64,000 nt of DNA from an uncultured Bacteroidales bacterium. Lineage in GTDB: Bacteria; Bacteroidota; Bacteroidia; Bacteroidales; Muribaculaceae. The notes below the pieces were generated by a model. The model saw only the letters and a list, made by a program, of their open reading frames with translations, did no database searches and had not been told where the DNA came from. Made by a program: the position numbers and the translations under genes. Where the stretch lies: NCBI GenBank assembly GCA_902772455.1, contig CACYAW010000001.1, positions 95,001 through 159,000 of the forward strand, given 5' to 3'. Positions within the stretch are counted from its first letter, which is position 1; every line of letters starts with the position of its first letter. Positions 3,327-43,110 of the stretch are shown here, piece by piece.

Positions 3327-3359
3327 TTTATTTTTTGTAGCATCATCGCTGTCACGTTG

Positions 3360-5979: not shown

Positions 5980-6014
5980 CGTTCTATCGGCAAGAAAAAT
6001 CCATAAAACAGCTG

Positions 6015-9727: not shown

Positions 9728-9746
9728 ATTATATCTTTATCGAACG

Positions 9747-9754
9747 CAAAGATA
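9747..9754 (-). promoter_or_regulatory. -7 box (TATCTTTG) for the WG-repeat gene
   Basis: TAnnTTTG match 20 bp upstream of the ATG at 9727. Confidence 0.6.
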
Positions 9755-9843
9755 AGAATTTTTCTTGAAAAACGGGCATCTCACATTACGAATGAATTCA
9801 TGCAATGCCAAATCTTACAAAAACGCGAATCTGTAATCCGCTG

Positions 9844-9879
9844 CAAAATTAGGGCATGCCGGTGCCATATTTGGGCACT
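9844..9879 (-). promoter_or_regulatory. Second -7 box (TAATTTTG) with imperfect GTGCCA-N5-GGGCAC palindrome
   Basis: Same 18-bp offset between box and palindrome as at 4876-4911. Confidence 0.5.
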
Positions 9880-9909
9880 GGGAGCAGGAATAAGGTTAAA
9901 AATGCCGAA

Positions 9910-9959
9910 ACGGTGGCGGAGCCACCGCCCACTTGACATGATGTTTCCAGAAAATGGGG
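9910..9959 (+). repeat. 50-bp direct repeat, copy 2
   Basis: 47/50 identical to 3360-3409. Confidence 0.9.
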
Positions 9960-10232
9960 ATGTGTCATCATTTGCCTCAGGATTTTCAATCGGCCTATCG
10001 GCCGAGAAATTGAACAAAATTATTAATATAATCAAAATAAATAGTTGTCATATTTGATTTTTATACAAATTTTTGTTTAATTTCTCCGTGCTAAGCACGG
10101 ACATTAATACAGGCTTGAATTATGAGACGGCCTCCATGTTGACCCACCCGCGGGGTAAGGGTGTTGCTGTTATTAATGTGGCGGTTCATTGATTAGTTCC
10201 AGGTCCAGGGAGTCATTGTCGTGGTTTTTTTG

Positions 10233-22820: not shown

Positions 22821-22825
22821 CTCCG

Positions 22826-24043: not shown

Positions 24044-24993
24044 TAAATCAGCGTAAATCTATCGGCGGATACTTTGAACTCGAACTGCCACAAGGTGTAG
24101 AGTACCATAGCAATGCCATAGCCTTGAATACGGGGCGCAATGCTTTGGAATATATCCTGCGGGTGCGTGGCTACAAACGGGTTTATCTGCCGTATTATTC
24201 CTGTGATGTACTGCTTGAACCCTTCAGTAAACTGCGCATCAACTATACGTTTTATCACATCAATTCAAATCTAGAAGTAGAATTTCAGGAATCGTTGAAT
24301 TCAGATGAGGCAATCCTCTATATCAACTATTTCGGTCTAAAACAAGACCATGTCGAGAGTTTGGCTAAACGATATGGAAAACAGTTGATTGTCGATAATA
24401 CCCAAGCATTCTATGCACCGCCAATAAGCGGTATAGACACTTTTTATAGTTGCCGCAAGTTCTTTGGTGTGCCCGATGGTGCTTATCTTTACTGTGACCA
24501 AGTACTAGATGTAGATTTGGAGCAAGACCATTCATGGGAACGGATGACACATCTGCTTAAACGGATTGATGTATCGGCAGAGGACGCATATGTCGATTTT
24601 CGTGAAACAGACGAGAGCCTGAAGAATAATCCCATTAGGCAAATGTCTCTCTTGACTCACCGCATCATGGCGTCGATTGACTATAGTGGGATAGCGGAAT
24701 GTCGCAGAAAGAACTATCTGCGACTAGACGAGGTTCTTAGTAACAAGAACGGTATTTCTTTATTACTTACTACGGATGCCGTACCCATGGTTTATCCTTT
24801 TTTCATCACAGACATTCAACTTAGGCAACGTCTCATCGAGAATAAAGTGTATGTTGCCACCTATTGGCCCAACGTGTTGGATTGGTGTGACAAGAACACT
24901 ACTGAACATCCTTTAACCCAGCAGTTGTTACCCATCCCCATCGACCAGCGTTATGGCGAGGGTGACATGAAAATGATTGTTGAATTGATATGA
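24040..24993 (+). CDS. Short DegT-like PLP-fold protein of unknown function
   Basis: IGGYFELE N-terminus, YINYFG, IVDNTQ, SCRKFFGVPDGA, PIDQRY. Confidence 0.6.
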   Translation: MINQRKSIGGYFELELPQGVEYHSNAIALNTGRNALEYILRVRGYKRVYLPYYSCDVLLEPFSKLRINYTFYHINSNLEVEFQESLNSDEAILYINYFGLKQDHVESLAKRYGKQLIVDNTQAFYAPPISGIDTFYSCRKFFGVPDGAYLYCDQVLDVDLEQDHSWERMTHLLKRIDVSAEDAYVDFRETDESLKNNPIRQMSLLTHRIMASIDYSGIAECRRKNYLRLDEVLSNKNGISLLLTTDAVPMVYPFFITDIQLRQRLIENKVYVATYWPNVLDWCDKNTTEHPLTQQLLPIPIDQRYGEGDMKMIVELI

Positions 24994-27554: not shown

Positions 27555-27590
27555 TGAAATAGACACTTGAAGGTATCGCATAGAATCCCA

Positions 27591-29120
27591 ATGATTTATA
27601 ACGTCCTGTCATATCTTGAGGATACAGCCCGCCGTTTTCCTGATAAAATGGCGCTGGCTGACGACAAGACTGCCCTCACCTTTGCCCAGTGGCTGTCGAT
27701 GGCGCAGGCTATCGGCACCCAAGTCGCCCGCCAGACTAGCGCCGTGCGCCGTCCCGTGCTGGTGTTTGTTGACCGTAAGGTGGAGTGTCTGGTTGGTTTT
27801 ATGGGCGTGGTCGAGAGCGGCAATTTCTATGTGCCCATCGACAATAAGATGCCCAGTGAGCGCATCCGCCTCATCGTTGACGTGCTCGATCCCGTTGCCG
27901 CCATCACAGTGACTGACAAGGATGCTCAGGTGTTGCAATCCATCGGTTTTCAGGGCGTAATTATAGATTACAATACCGTTATCGGTCAGGACGTCGATGA
28001 GGCGCTGTTGTCTGGCATTCGTGGGCAGATGATTGACACCGATCCGTTGTATGCCATCTTCACCAGCGGCTCGACGGGAGTGCCCAAAGGGGTTGTCGTC
28101 AGCCATCGTGGTGTGATTGACCTGGCCGAGTGGCTTGTGGGACGTTTTGGCTTTGACGAGACCGATGCGCTGGGCAACCAGACGCCGTTCTATTTCGACG
28201 GCTCGGTCAAGGATATCTACATCTGTCTCAAGACCGGTGCCACGTTGAACGTCATCGGCAAGAAATATTTCACCTTCCCCAAGTTGCTCATCCAGCTCTT
28301 GAACGAGCGTCAAATCACCACCATCCTGTGGGCGACGTCGGCCATCGTGCTGGTGGGCAACAGCAACATCCTTGACGATAATGTTCCGCAGCACCTGCGG
28401 CGCATTTTCTTTGCCGGCGAGGCCATGCCTGCCAAGCAGTTGAAGGTGTGGATGAGCAAATTGCCAGGGGTTCAGTTCATCAATCTGTACGGTCCCACCG
28501 AGATCACCGTCGATTGCACCTACTATGTGGTGGACCGCGATTTTAGTGACGACGAGTACATCCCCATTGGGCGTCCTTGCGAGAACATGCAGGTGCTCGT
28601 CTTCAACGACGAGGGCAAGCTGGTGGGCATCGACGAGCCGGGCGAGTTGTGCGTGCGTGGCACGGGAGTGGCCCTGGGCTATTATAATAATGTGGAAAAG
28701 ACTCGGGATGCTTTTGTGCAGAATCCGCTGCACAACCTTTATGAGGACAAGATTTACCGCACGGGTGACATCGTGAAGTATAACCGCTGCGGTGAACTGG
28801 AGTTTGTGTCCCGCAAGGACTTCCAGGTCAAGCACAACGGTAATCGCATCGAGTTAGGCGAGATTGAGGTGGCCGTCAACGCCCTTGACGGCGTGACGGG
28901 TGCCGCCTGCATACACGACAGCGAGGAGGACAAAATCGTGCTGTATTACACCACGGCCAGCGGCGATGAACTCGACATTATCAATCTGGTGAAGGACAAA
29001 TTGCCTAAGTACATGTTCCCTAACGTCATCAACCGCATTGATGCCATGCCCCACAACATGAACGGCAAGATCGACCGCATCGTCCTCAAGCACAACTACC
29101 AAGAACTAAAACAACAATAG
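27591..29120 (+). CDS. Stand-alone amino-acid adenylation enzyme (NRPS A-domain / DltA-like)
   Basis: Core motifs YAIFTSGSTGVPKG, FYFDGS, NLYGPTE, GELCVRG..VALGY, YRTGD, RIELGEIE, NGKIDR; no C or T domain; ATG at 27591 preferred. Confidence 0.92.
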   Translation: MIYNVLSYLEDTARRFPDKMALADDKTALTFAQWLSMAQAIGTQVARQTSAVRRPVLVFVDRKVECLVGFMGVVESGNFYVPIDNKMPSERIRLIVDVLDPVAAITVTDKDAQVLQSIGFQGVIIDYNTVIGQDVDEALLSGIRGQMIDTDPLYAIFTSGSTGVPKGVVVSHRGVIDLAEWLVGRFGFDETDALGNQTPFYFDGSVKDIYICLKTGATLNVIGKKYFTFPKLLIQLLNERQITTILWATSAIVLVGNSNILDDNVPQHLRRIFFAGEAMPAKQLKVWMSKLPGVQFINLYGPTEITVDCTYYVVDRDFSDDEYIPIGRPCENMQVLVFNDEGKLVGIDEPGELCVRGTGVALGYYNNVEKTRDAFVQNPLHNLYEDKIYRTGDIVKYNRCGELEFVSRKDFQVKHNGNRIELGEIEVAVNALDGVTGAACIHDSEEDKIVLYYTTASGDELDIINLVKDKLPKYMFPNVINRIDAMPHNMNGKIDRIVLKHNYQELKQQ

Positions 29121-29204
29121 GATCTTGTTCCAGTTTAACAACAGATTGTTCTGATCAATCTGATTTTCAGAACACTTAGATTCTTCAGTTGTTTTTAAGT
29201 AATT

Positions 29205-30014
29205 ATGGAGCAGTTGACCACAATAGAACAGTATAACAGCATTGCCGAGCGCTACCGCCGCCTGGGATGCTTTAGTAATGACTATCTGCAAGCTCGTGCC
29301 GAAGGGCTGATTGCCCGTGGACTGCTGTCGGCTGAATGGACTAACAACAATGCCTACCTGCTGGAGAGTAAAGACGGTTTCTATCGCCTGTACTACTACC
29401 TCAATGACCTGGAGGCTGACGATAAGCCTCAATTCCCCGGTGATGTGGTAACCGAAATCCTGTATCGTGGCCCGGCGCGTTACCCCAAGGCCGAGGTGGT
29501 TTTCCTCGAGCGCATGGGCTTCAATCCCAACCTGGTGCGCGACCAGTATGCGGCCGTCTATCGGGATCTGGCCCCTGCAGGCGATAACAAGGAGGTCACA
29601 GTGCGGCCCGCACTCGACATGAGCGAGGTGCAGTGGGCATGCCAGCTGTTCAATGTGACGTTTGACCGCTATAGCGGCGATTTCATCCCCGAAGAGAGTT
29701 ATGGCGGTTTACTTGCCACCGACAGCATCCTGGTGGCGATGGACAACATCGGCAACAGGGTGGGGGCGCTGCATCAGACCGTGGAACGTAACGTCGCTTG
29801 GATTTCACATGTCGCCGTCGTGCCCGCGGCACGAGGTCACCATGTAGGGGCTGCGCTGGTGGACGCCTTCGTCGAGCGCAACCACACCAGTGACAAGAGC
29901 CGCTATATGCTGTGGGTGCAGCAGCAGAACACCGCCGCTGTGGCCATGTACAAGAAAAAAGGCTTCACCAACTTGGGCAAATCCACCCTCTCTCTCATCA
30001 GAACTACGAATTAA
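29205..30014 (+). CDS. GNAT-family acyltransferase
   Basis: C-terminal VAVVPAARGHHVG and NTAAVAMYKKKGF motifs. Confidence 0.8.
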   Translation: MEQLTTIEQYNSIAERYRRLGCFSNDYLQARAEGLIARGLLSAEWTNNNAYLLESKDGFYRLYYYLNDLEADDKPQFPGDVVTEILYRGPARYPKAEVVFLERMGFNPNLVRDQYAAVYRDLAPAGDNKEVTVRPALDMSEVQWACQLFNVTFDRYSGDFIPEESYGGLLATDSILVAMDNIGNRVGALHQTVERNVAWISHVAVVPAARGHHVGAALVDAFVERNHTSDKSRYMLWVQQQNTAAVAMYKKKGFTNLGKSTLSLIRTTN

Positions 30015-30049
30015 ACTAAATAAACGAAATTGTTGTTTTCCTTTTTATT

Positions 30050-30271
30050 ATGGATAAACTGTTAAAGATAATGAAGGGCATTCGCCCAGACGTGGATTTC
30101 GAGAACGAGACCGAACTGATTGACGACGGCATTCTCGACTCGTTTGACGTTGTTTCCATCATCAGCGAAATCGATGACGCCTTCGGTGTCCAGATACGTA
30201 TCAACGAGCTCGACCCCGAGAACTTCAATTCGGCCGAAGCCATCTGGTCCCTTATCCAAAAGCTGAAATAA
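30050..30271 (+). CDS. Acyl/aminoacyl carrier protein (DltC-like, copy 1)
   Basis: 73 aa, acidic, LIDDGILDSFD phosphopantetheine serine motif. Confidence 0.9.
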   Translation: MDKLLKIMKGIRPDVDFENETELIDDGILDSFDVVSIISEIDDAFGVQIRINELDPENFNSAEAIWSLIQKLK

Positions 30272-30280
30272 ACAACGATT

Positions 30281-31435
30281 ATGATTGACGACATCATCAG
30301 GCATTATCCGGGTGAGGACGAGGTGTCCTATATCAAACGCAAAGCCTATTATTATAGGATATTGGGTCCTCGCACGAGGGTGGGATGTTATGTTCTTGTC
30401 AACCAAGATGTTAATTACCTCCCATTAAGTGCTGCGGAAACAAAAGCAATTGATGCGTTTTGGGACAGGTATTTGTCGCCGTCGATTCGTGAAAAGCTGA
30501 TAGATTACAGGTACTACAGCGTCTATAAGACGGTTATCAAAGAGGATGAAAACCTGTTGGATTATATACCTGATTCATTTTATCAGACTTTCATTGATGA
30601 TTATTACAGCAATCCCCAGGAATCCAAGCCCTGTGATGACAAAAATCTGTATGACCTGTACTTTCATGACATCAACAGGCCCAAAACCGTCTTCCGGAAA
30701 ACAAAGGGGCAATACCTTGACGAGAATTATGAAGTGATTTCGCTGGAAGATGCGTTGAAAAAGGCGAAATCCAGGAATGAGGTGATTCTCAAGATTGCCA
30801 AGTTCTCGGGTGGAGGTCACGGGGTGATGTTCTGGGATGCCAAGTCGTCCAGCGTGGACCAACTAATGGAATTTTTAAACAGTTCTGATAGAATCGTTTG
30901 CCAAGAAGTCCTTCGTCAACATGAAGTGCTGAATCGTGTGAATCCGACCAGCGTGAATACATTGAGAATAGTGACTTTCATGTTTAACGGCAAGGTGAAT
31001 ATCCTGTCGAGCGTCTTGAGGATGGGCCGGAATGGCTCTCGTGTTGACAATGCGAGCAGTGGAGGCATTGTGTGCGGTATCAAGCCAAACGGCCAATTAA
31101 AGAATGTGGCCTATGACACGGCAGCTAACGTATACTATAAACATCCTCAAGGAACTGAGTTTGAGAGTATAGTCATACCCAATTATGTCGATTGCACTAA
31201 CCTGGTGACAACTTTGGCCAAAAGGTTTTCTTCGGTGTCAAGGTTGATTTCTTGGGACCTAGCCATTGGCGAAGATGGTCAGCCAATATTGATTGAAAGC
31301 AATGTTACTTTTGGGGAATTGGATTTCCATCAGTTGTGCAATGGCCCTATTTTTGGTGCCTTGACCGAAGAGGTTCTGGCGGATGTGTTTGCCAACAGCT
31401 ATACGTTAAATTCTGTCATTAAATCATTTATATAA
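30281..31435 (+). CDS. Sugar-transfer-associated ATP-grasp protein, tandem paralogue 1
   Basis: DDKNLY, QEVLRQH, NPTSVNTLR, RMG..VDNASSGG, ISWDLAI, IESN. Confidence 0.85.
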   Translation: MIDDIIRHYPGEDEVSYIKRKAYYYRILGPRTRVGCYVLVNQDVNYLPLSAAETKAIDAFWDRYLSPSIREKLIDYRYYSVYKTVIKEDENLLDYIPDSFYQTFIDDYYSNPQESKPCDDKNLYDLYFHDINRPKTVFRKTKGQYLDENYEVISLEDALKKAKSRNEVILKIAKFSGGGHGVMFWDAKSSSVDQLMEFLNSSDRIVCQEVLRQHEVLNRVNPTSVNTLRIVTFMFNGKVNILSSVLRMGRNGSRVDNASSGGIVCGIKPNGQLKNVAYDTAANVYYKHPQGTEFESIVIPNYVDCTNLVTTLAKRFSSVSRLISWDLAIGEDGQPILIESNVTFGELDFHQLCNGPIFGALTEEVLADVFANSYTLNSVIKSFI

Positions 31436-31440
31436 AATCT

Positions 31441-32595
31441 ATGACATACGACATTATCAAACCGTTTTCTGGTGAAAGTGAAGAATCTTTTGCAAAACGA
31501 AAAGCCTATTATATAAGGATCTTAAAGAATCGTTTTGAATTTAGCACAATGAATTTAGAGAGAAAATTGCACAATGCAGTCCCCATTACGGCTCAAGATC
31601 GTGAAGAACTTGACGAGTTTTGGGATCAATATATGTCTCCAGAACTTCAAACGAAATTGATCGACTATCGTTATTATGACATGTATAATTGTGCTAGACG
31701 ACAGGGTGAACCTATCTATCAATACATACCCGATACTTTTTTCCAGCCATTTGTGGATGACTATTTTACTAATCCTCAAGATTCAATGCCATGTGATGAT
31801 AAGAACTTGTATGACATGTATTTTCATGATCTCAAGCGACCTAAAACAGTATTTAGATATATAAAAGGCTTATTTTTAGATGAGGATTATAAGGAATTGA
31901 CAATTAAAGAGGTAATAAATAGATGCCGGGATTGTGGGGAAGTTGTATTAAAGCCAGCAAGGTTCACAACGGGTGGTAGAGGTATATTATTTTGGAGAGC
32001 AGAAACAGATGGTTTAGACAAATTATTGGATTATCTGCAGAACATCAAATTTGTAATCTGCCAAGAAATCATCAAGCAGCATAATGAGCTTAATCGATTG
32101 AGCGTAAATAGTGTTAACTCTGTTAGGATCATGACATTACTTTTCGACAATGAGGTGCATCTATTGTCGAGTGTCTTGAGAATGGGGACGAATACAGCTA
32201 GAGTTGATAACTTCACTAATGGTGGTATTGCGGCTGGCATCAAGCCCAATGGTCAGTTAAAAAATGTCGCCTATGATGTGTGTGCCAATAAATACGAACA
32301 GCATCCATTAGGGACGGCTTTTGAAAGCGTTATAGTACCCAGCTACAGCCAATGTGTAGATATCGTGAAAATATTTGCAAAAAGATTTGCAATGGTTTCA
32401 AGGCAAATCTCATGGGATTTTGCGATAGATGAGGCTGGTAATCCTTTAATCGTAGAGTTTAATTTGTCCCGTGGTGGTATTGATGTTCATCAGTTATGTA
32501 ATGGTTCAATTTATGGTGACATGACTAAACCTATTTTTGATGAGGTTTTTGCCAACAGCTACACGTTGAATTCCATCATCAAATCATATCAATAG
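31441..32595 (+). CDS. Sugar-transfer-associated ATP-grasp protein, tandem paralogue 2
   Basis: DDKNLY, KPARFTTGGRG, VDNFTNGG, SWDFAI, VEFN. Confidence 0.85.
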   Translation: MTYDIIKPFSGESEESFAKRKAYYIRILKNRFEFSTMNLERKLHNAVPITAQDREELDEFWDQYMSPELQTKLIDYRYYDMYNCARRQGEPIYQYIPDTFFQPFVDDYFTNPQDSMPCDDKNLYDMYFHDLKRPKTVFRYIKGLFLDEDYKELTIKEVINRCRDCGEVVLKPARFTTGGRGILFWRAETDGLDKLLDYLQNIKFVICQEIIKQHNELNRLSVNSVNSVRIMTLLFDNEVHLLSSVLRMGTNTARVDNFTNGGIAAGIKPNGQLKNVAYDVCANKYEQHPLGTAFESVIVPSYSQCVDIVKIFAKRFAMVSRQISWDFAIDEAGNPLIVEFNLSRGGIDVHQLCNGSIYGDMTKPIFDEVFANSYTLNSIIKSYQ

Positions 32596-32598
32596 CAT

Positions 32599-33753
32599 AT
32601 GATAGACGACATTATTAGGCCCTATCCCGGAGAAGACGAATTTTCTTTCGAAAAGAGGAAAGTCTATTTTAATAGGCTTTTAAGAATTCGCTTTGTAGGA
32701 GGAGATTATCGAATAAGGGAAATGGTAAAAAAGGCTGTTCCTCTTGATGCTAATGAAAAGAAGCGGATTGATGATATCTGGGCACCTTATCTTCCTGTAG
32801 CGCTGCGTGACGAGGTTGTTGATTACAGGTATTATGAAGCTTACAAAGGGCTTAAATCAGAGGAAGATGACCTGTTTAAGTATATGCCGGATTCTTTTTT
32901 TAAGACATTCATTGACGACTATTTTACCAACCCTCAGGAGTCTAGGCCTTGTGATGACAAGAATATATATGATTTGTATTTCCATGACGTGGAACGGCCT
33001 AAGGTGCTTTTTAGGAAAATCAAGAATATATATTTAGATTCCGAATTCAATGAGATTTCATTGAACGAGATCATCAGGATTGCTAAAGCTCAACCTGAGG
33101 TCATCTGCAAGGTTGCAAAGTTTTCGATGGCTGGTAGTGGCATTTTGATTTGGAATTCGGAGCGTGATGATGAAGCAAAGTTAGTGGAATTCCTGCAGTC
33201 TGCAAATTACATCATTTGTCAAGCCATGCTCAAGCAGCATAGTGAGTTAAGCCGTTTGAATCCGACTAGTGTCAATACCATCAGAATTTTCACATTATTG
33301 TTCCAAGGCGAAGTCCATGTCCTATCGGCTATAGTTCGTATGGGGCGTAATGGTTCACGGCTTGACAATGCCAGCCAAGGAGGCATCGTGTGTGGTATCA
33401 AGCCCAATGGACAATTGAAGGATGTGGCTTGGAATGTTTTTGGCGATAAGTTCACGGTTCATCCTCTTGGTGTGATGTTCAATAGCGTAACCATCCCCAA
33501 TTACTATGAGTGCATCGACTTGGTGAAATCATTGGCCAAGCGAATGAGCTCCATCTCAAGGTTGATTTCGTGGGATTTGGCTATCAACGAGGCTGGTCAT
33601 CCGGTATTCATTGAATGCAATTTAACATGGACAGGAACGGAATCTCTGCAAATTCCAAATGGGCCGTTGTTGGGTGATTTGGCCAATGAGGTATTAAAAG
33701 AAGTATTTGCCAACAGTTATACGTTAAATTCAATTATTAAGTCATTCCGATAA
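32599..33753 (+). CDS. Sugar-transfer-associated ATP-grasp protein, tandem paralogue 3
   Basis: DDKNIY, KFSMAGSG, LDNASQGG, SWDLAI, IECN. Confidence 0.85.
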   Translation: MIDDIIRPYPGEDEFSFEKRKVYFNRLLRIRFVGGDYRIREMVKKAVPLDANEKKRIDDIWAPYLPVALRDEVVDYRYYEAYKGLKSEEDDLFKYMPDSFFKTFIDDYFTNPQESRPCDDKNIYDLYFHDVERPKVLFRKIKNIYLDSEFNEISLNEIIRIAKAQPEVICKVAKFSMAGSGILIWNSERDDEAKLVEFLQSANYIICQAMLKQHSELSRLNPTSVNTIRIFTLLFQGEVHVLSAIVRMGRNGSRLDNASQGGIVCGIKPNGQLKDVAWNVFGDKFTVHPLGVMFNSVTIPNYYECIDLVKSLAKRMSSISRLISWDLAINEAGHPVFIECNLTWTGTESLQIPNGPLLGDLANEVLKEVFANSYTLNSIIKSFR

Positions 33754-33756
33754 AAT

Positions 33757-34914
33757 ATGATAGATTTTGAATTAAGACCCTATCCTGGCGAGGACAAGGA
33801 TGCTTTTATCAAAAGAAAAGCTTACTTTATCAGGATACTCAGGCGACGTAAGGATTTGAGTTCATGGTATATACCGAAAGCATTAGTCAACAATAATAAA
33901 CCTATAAGTGCTAGAGATAAAGAATTAATAGACGCTTTTTGGGGACGTTATTTGTCTGAGGATTTGAGGAACCATATAGTGGATTATGGATATTATGATA
34001 TTTATAATAACGTATTGACTCCAGGCGAACACCTCTGTTATTATATACCCGATTCTTTCTACCAAACTTTTATTGATGATTACTACACCAACCCTCAGCA
34101 TTCGTTTCCTTGTGATGACAAGAACCTGTACGACCTGTATTTTCATGATGTGAATAGACCGGAAACGATCTTTAGGAAAACCAGCGATTTTATCCTTGAT
34201 GGAAACTATCATGAAATTTCATTAAGAGAAGCCATTGACAGGTGTAAAGCTGAAAATGAGGTAATCTTGAAGAAAGGGAAGTTTTCTATGGCAGGAAAGG
34301 GTATTATGATTTGGAATGCTCAGCAGTCTGAGAAAGATTTGTTGGATTTTCTTAATGAGTCTCCTGATGTAGTTTGCCAGCGGATGATCAAGCAGCATGC
34401 CGAGTTGAGTCGTATTAATCCAACAAGTGTCAATACTGTTCGTATCATGACATTAGTATTCAAGGGGCAAGTCCATGTTTTGTCCCGTGTACTGAGAATG
34501 GGAGTCAATGGTTCTAGGGTTGATAATGCCAGTCAAGGTGGCATCGTTTGCGGTATAAAGCCCGATGGACAACTTAAGAATGAGGCATATAATACCTATG
34601 GCAAGAGGTTCCCGGTACATCCTCAAGGCCTAGAATTTGAGAGTGTAAAGATACCTAACTTTAACGAATGTACTGAGCTTGTCATGAACTTGGCGAAAAG
34701 ATTTTCCTCACTCTCTCGATTAATATCTTGGGACCTAGCAATTGACGAAGCTGGCCATCCATTGTTAATTGAGTTTAATCTGACCTTCGGCGAGTTGGAT
34801 TTCCATCAGTTTTGCAATGGCCCAATATTTGGAGAATTGACCGAAGATGTGCTGGCGGATGTCTTTGCCAATAGTTACACATTGAAATCCATCATTAAAT
34901 CGTTCAAGAACTGA
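33757..34914 (+). CDS. Sugar-transfer-associated ATP-grasp protein, tandem paralogue 4
   Basis: DDKNLY, KFSMAGKG, VDNASQGG, SWDLAI, IEFN. Confidence 0.85.
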   Translation: MIDFELRPYPGEDKDAFIKRKAYFIRILRRRKDLSSWYIPKALVNNNKPISARDKELIDAFWGRYLSEDLRNHIVDYGYYDIYNNVLTPGEHLCYYIPDSFYQTFIDDYYTNPQHSFPCDDKNLYDLYFHDVNRPETIFRKTSDFILDGNYHEISLREAIDRCKAENEVILKKGKFSMAGKGIMIWNAQQSEKDLLDFLNESPDVVCQRMIKQHAELSRINPTSVNTVRIMTLVFKGQVHVLSRVLRMGVNGSRVDNASQGGIVCGIKPDGQLKNEAYNTYGKRFPVHPQGLEFESVKIPNFNECTELVMNLAKRFSSLSRLISWDLAIDEAGHPLLIEFNLTFGELDFHQFCNGPIFGELTEDVLADVFANSYTLKSIIKSFKN

Positions 34915-36068
34915 TGATAGACTTTATAAAACCTTATCCTGGAGAGGACGAATTATCCTATTGGAAAAGAAGGGTATATTTCCTGAGGGAGGTGCAATAT
35001 CGCATTGATTATCAGAATAAAGAGATTCTGAAGAAATTATCGAATGCGATGGCATTAACTCCGCAAGAGAAAGCAGAGATTGATGCTTTTTGGGGCCGAT
35101 ATCTTCCTGGATGTTTAAAGGAGTCATTCCTTGATTACCGGTTTTATGAATTCTATAAGACAGTAAAAAAGGCTAGAGAACGTTTGTGTGACTATATACC
35201 CGATAACTTTTATGAGGCATTCATTGATGAATACTTCACAGATCCTCAGCACACAAGGCCATTTGATGACAAGAATCTGTATGATGTTTATTTCCATGAT
35301 GTGCCTCAGCCGAAGACGATCTTCCGCAAAATCCGCGACTCCTATCTGGATGCGAATTATAGGATCATCACCCAAGAATATGCCATTGAAGCGGCTCTTG
35401 GTGCTGAAGAGGTTATATTAAAAGTCGGAAAGTACTCATGCGCAGGAAAAGGTGTAAAGTTTTGGAATAAGTCTATAAACGACAAGCATGAAATCATTGA
35501 TTTCTGTGACGATTCAGCTAATGTTACTTGTCAAGAGGTAATCAAGCAGCATGCAGAATTGAGTAGGCTTAATCCTAGTAGTATCAATACTGTTAGAGTG
35601 TTGACACTGTTTTTCGATAATCAGGTTCATGTCCTGTCAAGTGTCCTGCGGATGGGTGTGAATGGCTCAAGAGTGGATAATGCTTCCAGTGGCGGAATCG
35701 TTTGCGGTATCCATGAGACTGGACAATTAAAAGGGGAGGCTTTTGATACAATGGGCAATAGGTATTTAAAGCATCCTCAAGGGACGAATTTTGAGAGTGT
35801 AACAATCCCTAATTTCTCTTACTTTATTGATTTGTCCATTTCATTAGCGGAGCGGTTCTCATCTATGTCAAGACTGATCTCGTGGGACTTTGCTGTTGGG
35901 GAATCTGGCGAGCCTATTTTGATAGAATTCAATATTTCTCATGGACAACTGGATTTCCATCAGTTGTGCAATGGCCCGATTTTTGGTGATTTGACCGAAG
36001 ACGTTTTGAAGGATGTTTTTACCAACAGTTATACGTTGAAATCAATCATTAAATCATTCAAAAACTGA
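34914..36068 (+). CDS. Sugar-transfer-associated ATP-grasp protein, tandem paralogue 5
   Basis: DDKNLY, KYSCAGKG, VDNASSGG, SWDFAV, IEFN; TGATG overlap with paralogue 4. Confidence 0.85.
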   Translation: MIDFIKPYPGEDELSYWKRRVYFLREVQYRIDYQNKEILKKLSNAMALTPQEKAEIDAFWGRYLPGCLKESFLDYRFYEFYKTVKKARERLCDYIPDNFYEAFIDEYFTDPQHTRPFDDKNLYDVYFHDVPQPKTIFRKIRDSYLDANYRIITQEYAIEAALGAEEVILKVGKYSCAGKGVKFWNKSINDKHEIIDFCDDSANVTCQEVIKQHAELSRLNPSSINTVRVLTLFFDNQVHVLSSVLRMGVNGSRVDNASSGGIVCGIHETGQLKGEAFDTMGNRYLKHPQGTNFESVTIPNFSYFIDLSISLAERFSSMSRLISWDFAVGESGEPILIEFNISHGQLDFHQLCNGPIFGDLTEDVLKDVFTNSYTLKSIIKSFKN

Positions 36069-37222
36069 TGATAGACTTTGATATAAAACCCTATCCTGGC
36101 GAGGATGAGATATCTGTGTTGAAACGAAAGGTTTACTTTATTAGGGAAGTAAAACCGCGCATCGACTATCAGAAAAAATCGATTCAAGAAAAATCGTTGA
36201 ATTTGGTTCCTTTGACTTCGGAGGAAAAACAGGATATAGATTCATTTTGGGATAAATATCTGCCAGGCGATCTGAAAGAAAAATTCTTGGATTACAGGTA
36301 TTATGAGTTTTATAAGAATGTCTTGAAGGATGGTGAACGCTTGTGCAATTATATGCCCGATTTGTTTTATCAGGCGTTCATAGATGAGTATTTCACCAAT
36401 CCGCAGCACACAAGGCCAATTGATGACAAGAACCTCTATGACTTGTATTTCCATGATGTGCCTCGACCTAAGACTATATTCCGCAAAATCCTTAACTCCT
36501 ATCTGGATGAAGATTATAGGCCGATTTCAATGGATCGTGCCATCGAAATGGCATGCGAAACAGATGAAGTCATACTAAAGGTAGCAAAATTCTCTGCAGG
36601 CGGGGCCGGTGTGAAGTTTTGGAAAAATGGTGTAAATGAAAAACAGGAATTAATTGACTTCCTGAATTCCTCGACCAACATCGTCTGCCAGGAGGTCCTC
36701 AAGCAGCATGACGAACTCAATCGGCTCAATTCCAGTAGTGTGAATACCGTAAGGGTGATGACACTGTTATTTGATGATCAAGTCCATGTGTTGTCAAGTG
36801 TGTTGAGGATGGGCATTAATGGCTCAAGAGTGGATAATGCCAGCAGTGGAGGCATCGTGTGCGGAATCATGCCTGACGGTAGATTGAAAAATGTTGCTTT
36901 CGACATGCTGGGCAATAAGTTTTTGAAGCATCCTCAAGGAACGGCTTTTGAGAGTGTGAGAATCCCTGATTTTTCAAAGTGTCTCGAATACTCAACCTCA
37001 CTGGCGGAGAGACTATCATCGACCTCTAGATTGATGTCATGGGATTTAGCAATTGGCGAATCTGGTCATCCATTTTTAATAGAATTTAATAATTCGAGAG
37101 GGCAAATGGACTTTCATCAGTTGTGCAATGGACCATTTTTTGGAAAAATGACTGATAAGGTCTTGTCTGAAGTTTTCAGCAAGAGTTTTACGTTAAATTC
37201 CATCATCAAATCATTACAATAA
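36068..37222 (+). CDS. Sugar-transfer-associated ATP-grasp protein, tandem paralogue 6
   Basis: DDKNLY, KFSAGGAG, VDNASSGG, SWDLAI, IEFN; TGATG overlap with paralogue 5. Confidence 0.85.
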   Translation: MIDFDIKPYPGEDEISVLKRKVYFIREVKPRIDYQKKSIQEKSLNLVPLTSEEKQDIDSFWDKYLPGDLKEKFLDYRYYEFYKNVLKDGERLCNYMPDLFYQAFIDEYFTNPQHTRPIDDKNLYDLYFHDVPRPKTIFRKILNSYLDEDYRPISMDRAIEMACETDEVILKVAKFSAGGAGVKFWKNGVNEKQELIDFLNSSTNIVCQEVLKQHDELNRLNSSSVNTVRVMTLLFDDQVHVLSSVLRMGINGSRVDNASSGGIVCGIMPDGRLKNVAFDMLGNKFLKHPQGTAFESVRIPDFSKCLEYSTSLAERLSSTSRLMSWDLAIGESGHPFLIEFNNSRGQMDFHQLCNGPFFGKMTDKVLSEVFSKSFTLNSIIKSLQ

Positions 37223-37225
37223 ATC

Positions 37226-38377
37226 ATGAAGGATTTTGAATTGAAACCCTTTCCTGGTGAGAGCAGCGTTTCGTTTGACAAACGGAAGGCATACTATCAC
37301 AGGGTATTAGCGCATCGTTTGGCCTATGGCCGGGATTGCCTGGACAACAAGCTGAAGAATTCTACCCCCATCAGTGTAAGTGAACGTGAGGAAATCGATG
37401 CCTTTTGGGCACCCTATCTCACGCCTGAGCAGCGTGCCGAGTTTATCGATTACAGGTACTATGACGTGTATAAAAAGGTGCTGCGAGAGGGAGAAAGACT
37501 TTGTGAGTATATGCCTGAGGATTTTTATGCCCTATTTATCGATGAGTATTTCGGCAATCCGCAACACTCTTTTCCAACCGATGACAAGAACCTGTATGAC
37601 CTGTATTATCATGACGTCAAGAGGCCCAAGACAATCTTCAGGAAAGTGAAAGGCGTATTGCTTGATGAGAAATATGATGAGATTGCGCTCGATGATGTGC
37701 TTGCCATGTCTAGAGAACAGGGCGAGGTGATTGTTAAACCTTCTCGATTCACTCGAAGTGGCCGTGGCCTACTGTTTTGGAATTCAGTCAGGAATGACGA
37801 GAAAGAACTCAGGGATTATCTGCAGAGTAGTGGAGATGTTGTGTGCCAGGAAGTGGTAAAGCAGCATCCCGAACTGAGCCGACTCAATGCCTCGAGCCTG
37901 AATACTATCCGCATCATGACATTGATGCTCCATGGTAAGGTGCATGTGCTGTCAAGCTGTATCAGAATGGGCATTGAAGGCTCAAAAGTTGATAATTTCA
38001 CCAATGGCGGCATCGGGAGCGGCATCAAGTCAAACGGACAGCTGAAGAATGAGGCTTTTGATTATCAGGCCAATAGATATGAGAAGCATCCATCAGGCAC
38101 GATATTTGAGAGCGTGATGATACCAAACTTTGATGAGTGTATCGAGATGGTGAAATACCTCGCTAAACGAATCAGCATCATGTCAAGACTGGTTTCTTGG
38201 GATTTGGCAATTGACGAGAGTGGTCACCCCTTGATTATAGAGATGAACTTTGCTGGTGGATTGGACATTCATCAGCTCTGCAACGGACCGATTTACAGGG
38301 AACTGACGCGCGAGGTGCTAGATGACGTGTTCAAGAATGCCTATACATTAAATGCCATCCTCAAATCCATGCAATAG
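37226..38377 (+). CDS. Sugar-transfer-associated ATP-grasp protein, tandem paralogue 7
   Basis: DDKNLY, KPSRFTRSGRG, VDNFTNGG, SWDLAI, IEMN. Confidence 0.85.
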   Translation: MKDFELKPFPGESSVSFDKRKAYYHRVLAHRLAYGRDCLDNKLKNSTPISVSEREEIDAFWAPYLTPEQRAEFIDYRYYDVYKKVLREGERLCEYMPEDFYALFIDEYFGNPQHSFPTDDKNLYDLYYHDVKRPKTIFRKVKGVLLDEKYDEIALDDVLAMSREQGEVIVKPSRFTRSGRGLLFWNSVRNDEKELRDYLQSSGDVVCQEVVKQHPELSRLNASSLNTIRIMTLMLHGKVHVLSSCIRMGIEGSKVDNFTNGGIGSGIKSNGQLKNEAFDYQANRYEKHPSGTIFESVMIPNFDECIEMVKYLAKRISIMSRLVSWDLAIDESGHPLIIEMNFAGGLDIHQLCNGPIYRELTREVLDDVFKNAYTLNAILKSMQ

Positions 38378-38378
38378 G

Positions 38379-39422
38379 ATGCGGACTATCAGCAGCGATT
38401 CTCTAAAGCGAGCTCAGATGTTGTATGACTATAAGTTGTACAGCATTAAACAAATCAGAACTTTTTCAAAATATGCTTGGAAAACGTCAGGAGAATTGTC
38501 TGCAAAATACGGCGGCAGCAGGTTGTGCTACTGGGTTGACATGATTTGGAGCAACCTCATGTACGGAGCCATGCATTGCCGAGATTATGTGGAATTTGAG
38601 TTTTTCAAGAAAAACGGCAGGGAAAAGAATACGTTCTTCACGCTGCGCCGATATTTTAATCTGGTCAAGCATCTTGACAAGGAAACCTTTTTCAGCTTGA
38701 TAGACAAGGCGTCCATGTATGAGATTTATGCCAAATATATCCATCGGGATTGGATACTGGCCGATGCTGGCACTCCCGAGAGCCAGATTCGGGAATTTGT
38801 GGATAAGCACGGAAAAGTGATTGTCAAGCCAGTGTCCTCAGACAAAGGCAAAGGCATTTATGCCCTTAATGCCAATGATAACGCTGCCGTTGCCAAGCTG
38901 ATGGAGCACAAACAGCAGAACGCGTATCTGCTAGAAGAACTGTGTGTGAATTGTGAAGAATTGAACACAATTAATGCGACTTCTCTTAATACGATGCGTC
39001 TGTTTACTCTTGTGAATGCTCAGGGCGAAGTTCAGATTATGTGTGCCTTCTTGCGCTGTGGTCGAGGTGGGGCGGTCGTTGATAACTGGTGTGCAGGTGG
39101 CGTGGGTTATCCTGTGGATGTTGAAACTGGCATTATTGCTTATCCCGGTGTGGATGCTGCTGGCAATAAGTATGTGATTCATCCAGGAACCGACAAGATT
39201 ATGCCTGGTTTTGAAATCCCGCGTTTTAAAGAGATCTGTGCATTGGCTAAGGAAATCATCAGTGACAACAAGAAAATCGTTTATGCTGGATTAGACTTTG
39301 CCATCCTTCCTGATAGGGTGGAATTTATTGAAATCAATTTCCCTGCTGGATATGAATTGATACAAACGTGGGACATGGTGGGTAAAAACCACTGGTTTGA
39401 GCATATAGTAAATAAAAACTAA
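38379..39422 (+). CDS. Sugar-transfer-associated ATP-grasp protein, divergent member (8th)
   Basis: DYVEFEFF, LIDK, IVKPVSSDKGKG, SLNTMR, VDNWCAGG, HPGT, GLDFAI, IEIN; ATG 38379 follows the previous stop. Confidence 0.85.
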   Translation: MRTISSDSLKRAQMLYDYKLYSIKQIRTFSKYAWKTSGELSAKYGGSRLCYWVDMIWSNLMYGAMHCRDYVEFEFFKKNGREKNTFFTLRRYFNLVKHLDKETFFSLIDKASMYEIYAKYIHRDWILADAGTPESQIREFVDKHGKVIVKPVSSDKGKGIYALNANDNAAVAKLMEHKQQNAYLLEELCVNCEELNTINATSLNTMRLFTLVNAQGEVQIMCAFLRCGRGGAVVDNWCAGGVGYPVDVETGIIAYPGVDAAGNKYVIHPGTDKIMPGFEIPRFKEICALAKEIISDNKKIVYAGLDFAILPDRVEFIEINFPAGYELIQTWDMVGKNHWFEHIVNKN

Positions 39423-39430
39423 AGAGATTG

Positions 39431-40195
39431 ATGGAGGCTGGATTTCTTGATCTTCAAGGTAAAAAAATAGTTGTTGCCGGGGCTTGTGGAGGCATGGGCA
39501 AGGCTTTGTCAGCCATGTTGGCTCAGGGTGGGGCACAGGTTATCGCACTGGACCTTAACGAGGAAGCACTGGTGCAGCTGTGCCAGCAACTGAATGGCGA
39601 GGGGCATTGCTACCGTGTGTGTGACTTTGGGCACATCGAGGGCATTGAACCAGTCATTGACGATATCATCAAGCAATGCGGGCCGGTGGACGGCTTTGTG
39701 CATTGTGCGGGCACTGGTGAGGTACGCCCCTTGAAGATGTCGAAGTATCCTTATATGGTGGATGTGATGAATGTGAACTTTTTCTCGTTTGTTGAAATCG
39801 TGCGTTGCCTAACTAAGCGCAAAGCCTTCAACCCTGGGATGAGCATTGTGGGCGTGTCGTCGATAGGCGCGTTCTATGGTGCGCCGACCAAAGTGGCCTA
39901 CACATCGTCTAAGGCGGCGATGAATGCCGCCGTGAAGTGCATGGCAGTGGAGCTGGGCGGGAAAGGCATCCGTGTGAATGCTGTTGCTCCTGGTGCGACC
40001 AACACCAGCATGAGGCGCCAATATGAAAGCTATGCCCAGGATACCGATAGCTACAAGATCAATGCCATACGTCAATTCTTGGGCGTGTGTGAGCCTGAGG
40101 ACATCGCCAATTCGATAGCGTTCCTGCTGAGTGACAAGGCGAGGATGATTACGGGCACCTGCCTGACCGTGGATGGCGGCAAAATGTCCACGTGA
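39431..40195 (+). CDS. SDR oxidoreductase, FabG-like (copy 2)
   Basis: AGACGGMG, YTSSK, RVNAVAPG, VDGG. Confidence 0.9.
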   Translation: MEAGFLDLQGKKIVVAGACGGMGKALSAMLAQGGAQVIALDLNEEALVQLCQQLNGEGHCYRVCDFGHIEGIEPVIDDIIKQCGPVDGFVHCAGTGEVRPLKMSKYPYMVDVMNVNFFSFVEIVRCLTKRKAFNPGMSIVGVSSIGAFYGAPTKVAYTSSKAAMNAAVKCMAVELGGKGIRVNAVAPGATNTSMRRQYESYAQDTDSYKINAIRQFLGVCEPEDIANSIAFLLSDKARMITGTCLTVDGGKMST

Positions 40196-40196
40196 T

Positions 40197-40247
40197 TCAA
40201 GTTTTGGAAAAACTCCCAAAACTTGAGGTTTAGAGTTTAGGGTTTAG
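40197..40247 (+). repeat. Palindrome + (RGTTTAG)n heptamer element, copy 2
   Basis: 11-bp stem TCAAGTTTTGG-N8-CCAAAACTTGA followed by GGTTTAG AGTTTAG GGTTTAG. Confidence 0.85.
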
Positions 40248-40311
40248 AGAGATTTAAGACGGTTTTAGGCCAAACTTTAGTAATAAGGGACAAGAAACTA
40301 GATACTAATAT

Positions 40312-41349
40312 ATGATTATCAATGAATTAAATAGTATTGCGATAAAGGGTGTCGCATGTGCGGTATCGACCAACTGGGTGTCGATTGAATCACTCAAGAA
40401 CGGTGAGAATGACGCCACGCTCGACAAGTTCGTGAAGACGACGAGCGTGCAGGGGCACTATGAGTGCGGGCCGCGTCAGACGGCTGCCGACCTGGCTCAA
40501 GTGGCCGCCCAGCGCATTATTGATGCCAAGGGTATAGACAAAGGTGAAATCGGTGTGCTGGTGTTTGCGACTCAGTACCCGGACTACCGCGTACCATCGA
40601 CGGCCTGTGTGCTGCAAGACAGGCTGGGCTTGTCGAAGAACTGCATCGCCTTTGATGTGAACTTGGGTTGCTCTGGCTATGTGTATGGCTTGAACATCGT
40701 CGCCTCGCTGATGCAGACGGGTAATGCCCGTTACGGTCTGTTGCTGGCAGGCGACACGCCATCGAAGGGCGTTCGCAGCGACAACTCGCGCAACCTGTTT
40801 GGCGATGCCAGCGCTGCCACGTTGCTGGTCAAGGAGGAAGGCGCCTCGCCCATGACCATTGCCTCAAGGACCGATGGTTCGGGCTACAAGGCGATCCTTC
40901 GCCCCTATGGCTACAGCAAGCACCCCGAGCGTCCCGACACCCAGGGTGTGTTTGACGAGATTGACGTGTTCAACTTCGCCATCAACGAGGCCCCTGCGCT
41001 CATCAACGAGCTGCTGGAAGCGAAGAACTTGACGCCCGACAACTTTGACTGCATGGCATTGCACCAGGCTAACATGATGATCATGAAGCAGATCGTGCGC
41101 CGCACCCACTTTGACAAAGACAAAGTGATCTACTCGATAGACCGCTATGCCAACACGAGCGCAGCTTCCATCCCCCTGTGCTTCGTCAAGAAGTATGGCG
41201 AGGTGGACGATAGCCAGCGGTTGAAGGCCCTGGTGTGCGGCTATGGCGTGGGCCTGTCGTGGGCTGCCGGCATCATTAGCCTGGATGCGCGTGACGTGCT
41301 GCCCATCATTGAGACGGACGAGTACTTTGACGATGGACTGTTTGAATAA
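40312..41349 (+). CDS. Ketoacyl-ACP synthase III, FabH-like (copy 2)
   Basis: DVNLGC, LHQAN, YANTS, GYGVGLSW. Confidence 0.9.
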   Translation: MIINELNSIAIKGVACAVSTNWVSIESLKNGENDATLDKFVKTTSVQGHYECGPRQTAADLAQVAAQRIIDAKGIDKGEIGVLVFATQYPDYRVPSTACVLQDRLGLSKNCIAFDVNLGCSGYVYGLNIVASLMQTGNARYGLLLAGDTPSKGVRSDNSRNLFGDASAATLLVKEEGASPMTIASRTDGSGYKAILRPYGYSKHPERPDTQGVFDEIDVFNFAINEAPALINELLEAKNLTPDNFDCMALHQANMMIMKQIVRRTHFDKDKVIYSIDRYANTSAASIPLCFVKKYGEVDDSQRLKALVCGYGVGLSWAAGIISLDARDVLPIIETDEYFDDGLFE

Positions 41350-41389
41350 ATAGAAGTATTTAATAATATAATTATCAGAGATTTAGATT

Positions 41390-41608
41390 ATGACTAACGA
41401 AGAAAAGTTGCACATGATTGAAGATGTGCTTGAACTGGACGAGAACACGTTGACTCCCGAGATGGTACTGGCTGATATCGAGGAATATGACTCGATGTCC
41501 AAACTGTCACTCATCGTGATGATTGACGACGAGTGCCACAAGAAATTGACCGGCGAGCAGCTGCGCGAATTCGTGACTGTGCAGGACGTGCTCGATTTCA
41601 TGGAGTAA
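41390..41608 (+). CDS. Acyl carrier protein (copy 2)
   Basis: 72 aa, acidic, EEYDSMSKL serine motif, TVQDV. Confidence 0.88.
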   Translation: MTNEEKLHMIEDVLELDENTLTPEMVLADIEEYDSMSKLSLIVMIDDECHKKLTGEQLREFVTVQDVLDFME

Positions 41609-41676: not shown

Positions 41677-43110
41677 ATGGCAGAATCGCTGAAGAAAAAG
41701 ACCGTTAAGGGCGTTGCCTGGACCTCGCTGGACCAGTTTGCGAAATTAGGCTTTGGCTTCGTGATCGGAGTTATCCTGGCGCGAATCCTCAGCCCGAGCG
41801 ATTATGGCCTGCTGGCAATGATTGCCGTGTTCAATGCCATTGCTTTTGCTTTTCTTGACAGTGGATTTGGCAGTGCACTGATCCGCAAGCCTGACTTGAC
41901 TGAGAACGATAACTGTACGGCATTTTATTTCAATATTGTTGCCGGTGTCGTCCTTTATGGCGTGATATGGCTAATAGCGCCGTGGGTATCGGTTTTCTAC
42001 GACAAACCGATATTGACGCAGCTGTTACGGGTTGAGGGCCTGTTGCTGATTATCTCGTCGTTCAAGATTGTCCAGAACACCCAATTGTCGAGGGCGCTGA
42101 ATTTTAAAGCGAAGGCTATCATCAATGTCACTTCAGATGTCATTTCGGGAATTATCGCCGTTATAGCCGCTTATCATGGGATGGGTGTGTGGTCACTGGT
42201 GCTGCAGCATATAGCCAGTGGTGTGATCAGCTTGATCATGTTGTGGTTGTTCTCTCCATGGCGACCTCGCGGCAAGTGGGACAAGAGGTCTTTCCGTTAC
42301 CTGTGGGGATATGGCTCCAAATTGCTGGCATCAGGTTTGTTGGATAAGATTTATGGCAATATCTATCCGATTATCATTGGCAAATTCTATTCGGCAGCCG
42401 ACTTGGGACAATACACACGTGCCACCCATTATGCCGGAATGCCATCAGGAATCCTCACGGGAGTATTGCAAAAAGTGACATTTCCGGTACTGAGCCATAT
42501 CCAAGAAGATACTGAGCGTTTGGGCAACAGTTACCGCCGCATGTTGCGTTTTACAGTGTTTATCGTTTTTCCCGTCATGGTTGGTATGGCGGCGCTGGCC
42601 TATCCCCTTGTGGTGGCCCTAGTCACCGATAAGTGGGCACAGTGCGTGCCTTATCTGCAGATTATCTGTTTGTCGTCGATGTGGTACCCAGTGCATGCCA
42701 TCAACCTGAATCTGTTGCAGGTGAAGGGGCGTAGCGACTTGTTTCTGAGACTGGAAATCATCAAGAAGGCTTTGATTACCGTTGTGATCTTTGTCTGTGT
42801 CCCGTTCGGTATCATTGGCATCTGTTACGGAGCGGTTTTCACATCGCTGGCTTGTTTAGCGATTAACACCTACTATACGGGCAAACTAATCAACGTAGGC
42901 TTTGTCCGGCAGATGATGGATATGACACCCACACTGCTGGCCTCGCTGGTCATGGGAGCTGTTGTCTTTTTTGCCGTGATGCCATTCGATAGCAATGTGG
43001 TGAAACTCGTTATTGGCATCCCACTCGGCATGGTTGTTTATCTTTCTATCGCCAAGGTCTTCAATATGGCAGAGCTGCAGGAGGCCCTCGACATCATCCA
43101 CCGCAAATAG
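41677..43110 (+). CDS. wzx: Polysaccharide flippase (WzxC-like)
   Basis: LKKKTVKGVAW..LARILSPSDYG, multiple TM helices. Confidence 0.9.
   Translation: MAESLKKKTVKGVAWTSLDQFAKLGFGFVIGVILARILSPSDYGLLAMIAVFNAIAFAFLDSGFGSALIRKPDLTENDNCTAFYFNIVAGVVLYGVIWLIAPWVSVFYDKPILTQLLRVEGLLLIISSFKIVQNTQLSRALNFKAKAIINVTSDVISGIIAVIAAYHGMGVWSLVLQHIASGVISLIMLWLFSPWRPRGKWDKRSFRYLWGYGSKLLASGLLDKIYGNIYPIIIGKFYSAADLGQYTRATHYAGMPSGILTGVLQKVTFPVLSHIQEDTERLGNSYRRMLRFTVFIVFPVMVGMAALAYPLVVALVTDKWAQCVPYLQIICLSSMWYPVHAINLNLLQVKGRSDLFLRLEIIKKALITVVIFVCVPFGIIGICYGAVFTSLACLAINTYYTGKLINVGFVRQMMDMTPTLLASLVMGAVVFFAVMPFDSNVVKLVIGIPLGMVVYLSIAKVFNMAELQEALDIIHRK

Follow-up and report, generated by a model that had tools for sequence, protein, structure and literature searches.

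Among ATP-grasp enzymes, RimK, LysX/ArgX and glutathione synthetase (GshB) add an amino acid to the carboxylate of a peptide or protein. Closer to surface polysaccharides, the C-terminal TupA-like ATP-grasp domain of Cj1438 amidates the glucuronic acid (GlcA) of the Campylobacter jejuni HS:2 capsule (PMC11800379), and linked ATP-grasp peptide ligases have been predicted to ligate successively in O-antigen or teichuronopeptide synthesis (Iyer/Aravind, as cited in PMC4431377). Here we describe an array of seven tandem genes of the ATP-grasp family PF14397 (ATPgrasp_ST), followed by a divergent eighth, in a capsule locus on a 64,000-nucleotide stretch of DNA from an uncultured Bacteroidales bacterium of rumen Prevotellaceae type (contig CACYAW010000001.1, positions 95,001 to 159,000), which we refer to as the window. 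Our results support the view that these paralogues are ancient, separately conserved types, used in strain-specific selections and in a fixed order before the product is flipped across the membrane. Most likely, the array attaches a strain-specific set of amino-acid-like units to a capsule sugar.

A tandem array of seven intact ATP-grasp genes

The array occupies positions 30281-38377 of the window and consists of seven intact open reading frames (ORFs) of 383-385 amino acids (aa) on the plus strand, with a period of about 1.16 kb; coordinates and lengths agree with a preliminary description of this DNA. Neighbouring genes are separated by gaps of 3-5 nt or overlap by 1 nt. All seven copies match PF14397 with 121.8-140.8 bits (E 4e-35 to 6.5e-41) at a gathering cut-off of 31.4 bits, and their pairwise amino-acid identity is 51-63%. 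The earlier count of seven paralogues was right for these copies, but overlooked a divergent eighth PF14397 gene, div8, the ORF of which, as called, starts before copy 7 ends. It is much more divergent than copies 1-7 and shows weak matches to YheCD and GSH-S besides PF14397. The genes are as follows, with the types (T numbers) as defined further below:

30281-31435, plus strand: ATPgrasp_ST copy 1, 384 aa; PF14397 E 5.8e-37; type T07, a 'first-position' type
31441-32595, plus strand: ATPgrasp_ST copy 2, 384 aa; PF14397 E 2.4e-35; type T08
32599-33753, plus strand: ATPgrasp_ST copy 3, 384 aa; PF14397 E 1.5e-36; type T02
33757-34914, plus strand: ATPgrasp_ST copy 4, 385 aa; PF14397 E 2.1e-39; type T04; the copy used for structure modelling
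34914-36068, plus strand: ATPgrasp_ST copy 5, 384 aa; PF14397 E 2.9e-36; type T06, subtype a
36068-37222, plus strand: ATPgrasp_ST copy 6, 384 aa; PF14397 E 4e-35; type T06, subtype b
37226-38377, plus strand: ATPgrasp_ST copy 7, 383 aa; PF14397 E 6.5e-41; type T01, a 'last-position' type
38352-39422, plus strand: div8, the eighth, divergent ATPgrasp_ST gene; PF14397 E 1.6e-39, 136.3 bits

An assembly artefact was ruled out by independent data that reproduce the junctions. An 18-kb contig, produced with an independent assembler and stemming from a bovine gut metagenome run that is possibly the source, covers 29000-40500 with zero differences, identical contigs from a second sample of the same study bridge five of the six internal array junctions, and a further study contributed a 2.4-kb contig of 97% identity that connects copies 1-3. 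One contig of X5 seemed to skip 29930-39764; it has only 29-39 matching letters on one side and was treated as unreliable, and stretches lacking cover in X5 and X19 carry no meaning. Contigs from an RNA-library run are just 90-95% similar and extend over parts of copies 1, 3, 4 and 6. Downstream of the array, at 40219-40255 between an SDR gene and a second KASIII gene, many contigs from several runs end or diverge, possibly at a short repeated element or a recombination junction.

The source genome, a 3.15-Mb assembly of 163 contigs, contains 12 PF14397 matches, eight of them in the array. The four others lie elsewhere in the genome (contig C1 170351-171184, C10 5185-5841, C33 55212-57559); one of them is found about 11 kb beyond the end of the window, and a C33 gene shares 41% identity with copy 4. 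In a set of 300 species genomes from the same taxonomic family, PF14397 matches at E<=1e-20 occur in 19, with at most four per genome.

Age and selection of the seven copies

From clearly diverged DNA and the absence of broken copies, the preliminary description had favoured functional divergence over dosage amplification, and both its observation and its conclusion hold. Synonymous sites between the seven copies are saturated (proportion of synonymous differences, pS, 0.69-0.87). This saturation of synonymous divergence (dS) precludes site-wise ratios of non-synonymous to synonymous divergence (dN/dS, omega) between the paralogues, and region-wise omega within types was used instead. In the tree, the seven copies never cluster together, and each has a closer relative in arrays on other contigs (L numbers denote the related loci described below, c the copy within them). 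Copy 1 is 96% identical to copy 1 of L036, copy 2 has orthologues in L014_c2, L012_c2 and L043_c1, copy 3 is separated from L039_c3 by a dS of 0.18 (omega 0.11) and copy 5 from its orthologue L037_c1 by a dS of 0.59 (omega 0.12), while the orthologues of copy 7, L014_c3 and L040_c2, yield omega values of 0.055-0.064. Copy 6, finally, is nearer to L039_c2 (dS 0.94) than to copy 5 (dS 1.88), with which it shares its type. Over all unsaturated orthologue pairs, within-type dN/dS is 0.03-0.16. Saturated dS, closer orthologues elsewhere and low within-type dN/dS together exclude recent dosage amplification and show that selection maintains each copy.

Equal gene lengths and a regular period might still be taken as signs of a recent amplification or an artefact of assembly. 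Given the low identity and high pS among the copies, the orthologues that each of them has elsewhere and the reproduced junctions, we discount this explanation for all practical purposes. Rather, the nearest relatives differ from one window copy to another, and the distance to one and the same foreign array, L039, is unequal (dS 0.37 for copy 1, 0.18 for copy 3 and saturated for copy 4); the array is therefore a mosaic. In a related locus, the T02 copy at L036:8843-9997 is broken into two ORFs (314 and 69 aa). We read this as a recent break or a sequencing error, because against the unbroken copy 3 of the window it retains a dN/dS of 0.10.

Fold and catalytic residues

An AlphaFold2 (AF2) model of copy 4, based on an alignment of 148 sequences, reached a predicted local distance difference test (pLDDT) score of 94.3 and has the central and C-terminal domains of the ATP-grasp fold. 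In a wide structural search with this model, the first four ranks were taken by ArgX (Z 15.5), LysX/ArgX (14.7), RimK (14.1) and GshB (13.6); further matches were Ddl, TTL/TTLL, graspetide ligases and L-amino-acid ligases. In total, 67 chains were matched at Z>=8, mostly ATP-grasp enzymes, the top ones with about 220 aligned residues and an identity of 13-15%. Foldseek gave a probability of 1.00 to both RimK and Ddl. Residues 1 to about 135 of the model are all-helical, unlike the alpha/beta N-domain of RimK, LysX/ArgX and glutathione synthetase.

At the sequence level, K172, R229, W325, D326 and E339 are invariant in the 148 sequences, and R247, D256, N257 and N341 are at least 90% conserved, so that the lysine with its glycine-rich loop, the arginine and the D...E-x-N metal site of ATP-grasp enzymes are all found. 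The catalytic positions that had been described as invariant are indeed so in all seven aligned copies. Solved structures in the PDB, searched by sequence, returned nothing significant; NCBIfam models had no match for copy 4 and only partial ones for div8, at E about 1e-5 and far under cut-offs; and the TupA-like family gave no hit at E<=0.01 for the seven copies, for which PF14397 is the sole Pfam match. Sequence models thus do not place the array in the RimK/LysX/GshB clade, whose members are its closest structural neighbours. Taken together, modelled fold and conserved residues support the prediction that each copy is a catalytically intact amide ligase.

Ligase types and their order in related arrays

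A protein search returned 497 relatives at E<=1e-20. From contig look-ups and scans of genome and metagenome collections, we obtained 19 loci of the tight subfamily; where their origin is on record, they come from rumen or gut Prevotellaceae and other Bacteroidales. These loci carry 1, 2, 3, 4, 5, 6 or 7 copies, drawn from at least 39 types, which we defined by clustering 168 sequences at about 67% identity. Four of the arrays read:

Window: T07 T08 T02 T04 T06 T06 T01
L117: T07 T08 T02 T04 T11 T03 T05
L039: T07 T06 T02 T04 T03 T05
L011: T12 T13 T14 T01 T03 T05 T15

Across arrays, 91 pairs are concordant in type order and 8 discordant, and 28 of the 33 recurring type pairs always occur in the same order. 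T07 or T12 act as starting types and T05 or T01 as ending types; T07 stands first in four of the five arrays that carry it, and T01 last, likewise in four of five.

The arrays are embedded in two kinds of gene neighbourhood, which we call chassis. In chassis A, an adenylation enzyme, a GNAT protein and a carrier protein precede the array, and div8 and a second SDR-KASIII-ACP cassette follow it. Chassis B comprises two other ATP-grasp ligases, a dehydrogenase of the alanine dehydrogenase (AlaDH) or octopine type and proteins of unknown kind, and has neither carrier protein nor adenylation enzyme. The same ligase types are found in both. Of 12 chassis-A loci, 11 have div8 after the array, and all five chassis-B loci lack it; a Wzx gene lies downstream of the array in all loci that extend that far. 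The chassis-B dehydrogenases stand beside the two ATP-grasp genes at L118:3622-4824, L036:5366-6583 and L117:4201-6432 and may serve to make an opine-like or otherwise unusual amino acid.

Some sister loci contain further genes next to or within the array. A Mur-ligase-family gene lies inside the L040 array (between 2596 and 5226) and directly before the L116 array (2231-3550), placed as if it were an alternative module. In four loci (L115:6252-8222, L014, L041 and L043), a PGA_cap + GDSL fusion is encoded just upstream of the array, and its PGA_cap part matches MslH (8GQ9, E 6e-4), the C-terminal epimerase of a lasso peptide (PMC10406935). No PGA_cap protein is present next to the array of the window.

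Tight spacing by 3-5 nt gaps or 1-nt overlaps, together with conserved terminal segments, would also be expected if the coupled paralogues formed one obligate hetero-oligomer in which some subunits are catalytic and others are scaffolds. We consider such a complex very improbable, as all catalytic positions are intact in the seven copies and as loci differ in which copies, and how many (1 to 7), their arrays contain, unlike a fixed stoichiometric complex. Gene conversion or recombination hot spots at the conserved gene ends were also considered and rejected, because the share of identical residues with identical codons is not raised at the termini (0.47-0.53, and 0.33-0.59 elsewhere).

Variable loops and type specificity

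The preliminary description had seen the variation among the copies concentrate in four regions: the Gly loop, the loop at the DN motif, the segment following the ExN motif (post-ExN) and a helix at residues 25-45. The strings that it quoted for the first three are each found as written in the alignment. We compared the regions by omega within types, from 36 unsaturated pairs, and by the ratio of between-type to within-type amino-acid divergence:

DN loop: omega 0.003; divergence ratio 6.4
Post-ExN segment: omega 0.038; divergence ratio 4.0
Gly loop: omega 0.058; divergence ratio 2.5
Helix 25-45: omega 0.17; divergence ratio 2.1
Whole protein: omega 0.099; divergence ratio 2.1

Thus the DN and post-ExN loops stand out as described, but variation as such is spread over many segments. 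Because they differ between types and are nearly frozen within them, these two loops behave like specificity determinants, and the pattern expected of such putative determinants is in this respect partly supported. The Gly loop gives a borderline signal, and helix 25-45 is simply the least constrained stretch. Type-defining positions are also found elsewhere, for example at 104, 32, 142, 278, 280 and 92, and when nearest types were compared, their fixed differences showed no enrichment in the four regions, p<0.05 being reached in only one of ten pairs. Of the proposed specificity code in the loops, the two loops that are frozen within types therefore remain, while the helix carries no signature and nine of ten pairs lack the enrichment.

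A similar division applies to the motifs common to the non-adjacent copies 2 and 7, which had been taken to covary. They are present, but independent covariation is unsupported: in an approximately unbiased (AU) test, a clade of T01 and T08 was not rejected (p 0.53), the constrained tree being better by 0.77 log-likelihood units (lnL), so that these motifs may be inherited. Convergence of the two copies, which the tree with T01 and T08 as non-sister types had first seemed to indicate, was dropped after this result. A chimeric origin of T01 with T08 loops was discarded as well, since T01 is nearest to T03 in nearly all blocks and no nearer to T08 in the loop blocks. The motifs REV..RIDYQ and HTRP, reported as shared by copies 5 and 6, are present as written.

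Genomic context

The array sits within a large polysaccharide locus of the Wzx/Wzy type, and association of PF14397 with surface polysaccharides was found both in the window and in the 19 related loci. Its surroundings in the window are the following:

21708-24993, plus strand: DegT aminotransferase, 405-aa ATP-grasp_4 ligase and a 317-aa unknown; common to both chassis in the synteny table
27567-29120, plus strand: stand-alone amino-acid adenylation enzyme, DltA-like; TIGR01733 at 342.7 (cut-off 317.4)
29205-30014, plus strand: GNAT acyltransferase; Pfam Acetyltransf_1/7/10; always after the adenylation enzyme
30050-30271, plus strand: 73-aa DltC/ACP-like carrier protein, directly 5' of copy 1; DSF motif; conserved in chassis A
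39428-41608, plus strand: second SDR - KASIII - 72-aa ACP cassette, between array and flippase; travels with div8 in chassis A
41677-43110, plus strand: Wzx-type flippase; PF13440 E 4.6e-96; closes the module

A PglD-like acyltransferase, an SDR and a KASIII are encoded between the 317-aa unknown and the adenylation enzyme. The latter also matches DltA models, but under their cut-offs, and the carrier protein matches DltC and ACP models at E 2e-10 and weaker, all under cut-offs; no DltB- or DltD-type genes were found among the ORFs scanned. On the 3' side of Wzx follow many glycosyltransferases, Glf, a pyruvyl transferase and an EpsG-type protein, and upstream, on the opposite strand, a Wzc-like kinase and a UDP-glucose dehydrogenase. 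The GC content is 0.39-0.42 in the array (30001-38000) and 0.51-0.54 in the flanking chassis genes, as would fit a modular array that is passed from one chassis to another. Further away, at 6001-10000, a segment with a GC content of 0.33-0.34 and a 1107-aa ORF on the minus strand lies amid genes of 0.50-0.59 GC and is probably an accessory islet.

The carrier protein raises the possibility that the ligases extend or load this 73-aa protein, or another protein, as RimK does on S6 and LysX/ArgX on LysW, the sugar not being a direct substrate. In this regard, the top structural matches ArgX/LysX and RimK act on protein C-termini, and in chassis A the carrier gene directly precedes copy 1. The same types, however, occur in chassis B without carrier protein or adenylation enzyme; the carrier has a DSF motif of the phosphopantetheine type and a C-terminus that is basic, not acidic; and the array is always found in capsule loci, adjoining Wzx. 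We thus regard modification of a protein as improbable.

Discussion

How could an array of this kind decorate a capsule? In the mechanism that we propose, each ligase would use ATP to convert a carboxylate to an acyl-phosphate, which is then joined to an amine. All ligases would hold a common handle, the sugar-linked precursor, by means of residues invariant across types; the large number of such residues is what suggests a common handle. The type-specific DN and post-ExN loops would pick the variable partner, and in this way an oligopeptide-like side chain may be built in the cytoplasm, on a sugar or on the lipid-linked repeat unit, ahead of flipping by Wzx, much as MurC-F act on UDP-MurNAc and enzymes of the RimK/GshB type extend C-termini. 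Carrying 1 to 7 types in largely fixed order, strains would possess a menu that diversifies the chemistry of their capsules. The substrates, the stepwise action and the relation of gene order to product are what we infer from the genes and their neighbours.

Within this scheme, we tentatively favour, at somewhat less than even confidence, a short amide-linked chain that grows on a sugar-linked precursor, each added unit having a ligase of its own. We favour it because of the number of ligases, the nearest folds, which extend peptide termini, the Mur-family and MslH-like neighbours, the distinct start and end types and the residues invariant across types. A bolder version, which we hold to be doubtful, is a template-free line with one gene per residue, neither ribosomal nor a non-ribosomal peptide synthetase (NRPS), that builds a defined, peptide-like chain of seven or eight units on a capsule sugar; the set and order of types would spell the chain, and exchange of cassettes between strains and between the two chassis would reprogram a glycopeptide capsule.

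The main rival of the one-ligase-per-unit chain is parallel decoration, in which every ligase would work independently on the repeat unit and link a different amine to one of its carboxylates, be it a uronic acid, a pyruvate ketal or an acidic substituent, yielding mixed, non-stoichiometric single residues. Its precedent is the one-step GlcA amidation by Cj1438C, which accepts two amines (PMC11800379), and a UDP-glucose dehydrogenase and a pyruvyl transferase in the window would supply carboxylates. Types are, moreover, dropped or exchanged without loss of their neighbours. Seven or eight enzymes, on the other hand, appear excessive for the few carboxylates plausible in one repeat unit, and there are probably fewer distinct amines than ligase types, which number at least 39. 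Chain chemistry is indicated by the start and end types, by the Mur-family ligases and the MslH-like C-terminal epimerase of sister loci, and by nearest folds that act on peptide termini. We therefore consider parallel decoration unlikely, if a serious contender.

Several observations weigh against a stepwise chain. Internal types may be absent while later ones remain, which fits parallel decoration or a loose acceptor specificity better than a strict chain; T02 is preceded by T08, T06 or T07, and T04 has six different successors; and arrays of only one or two copies occur (L044, L038). Conserved order is compatible with colinearity of genes and product, but is equally produced by descent alone, from which, through deletion and replacement, it is to be expected. 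That the DN and post-ExN loops lie at the substrate site is our assumption from general knowledge of ATP-grasp enzymes, and the Lys/Gly-loop segment aligns just weakly with the ATP-phosphate loop of PurK and Ddl (E 0.12-0.35). The sole biochemical precedent for a capsule, in C. jejuni, is a single-step amidation, and a literature search for the family name found no characterised member of the subfamily. Nor did a search for ATP-grasp genes associated with amino acids in amide linkage on O-antigens give a direct match.

For Bacteroidales of the gut and rumen, the capsule determines sensitivity to phages, recognition by the immune system and fitness in a niche. If the arrays do add strain-specific amino-acid or peptide side chains, they would constitute an undescribed source of capsule diversity, and biocatalysis could draw on their compact, soluble and modular amide ligases, of which at least 39 types occur naturally. 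The ordered menu also offers an experimental handle in the form of natural arrays that differ by one type, as L039 and L036 do, and as the family has no known substrate, a single assay series would annotate hundreds of genes.

Compared with known systems, the array is most directly related to the context-defined 'sugar-transfer associated ATP-grasp' family PF14397, which all eight genes match and in keeping with which they lie in a polysaccharide locus; this family is known from single or few genes, whereas the tight subfamily described here is organised in ordered arrays with as many as seven members plus one. RimK, LysX/ArgX and glutathione synthetase resemble the array as its best structural matches and in their catalytic layout of Lys and Gly loop, Arg and D/E-x-N, but serve the ribosome, lysine or thiol metabolism, and the array capsule synthesis. 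Cj1438 shares with it a capsule-locus ATP-grasp domain that forms an amide on a sugar carboxylate; that domain, however, belongs to another Pfam family, is a single one fused to a glycosyltransferase and performs one step, whereas the array members are PF14397 genes in series. By analogy, the array also resembles MurC/D/E/F acting on UDP-MurNAc, paralogous ATP-dependent ligases that work one per residue on a sugar-linked carboxylate, although these have an unrelated fold and form a fixed set of four, in contrast to a strain-variable menu. The prediction by Iyer/Aravind, in the form in which PMC4431377 cites it, contains the same idea of operon-linked successive ligation, but is context-based and concerns pairs or few genes. 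While successive ligation had thus already been predicted, the novelty lies in the scale and in arrays of 1-7 genes that are ordered, combinatorial and made up of orthologous types.

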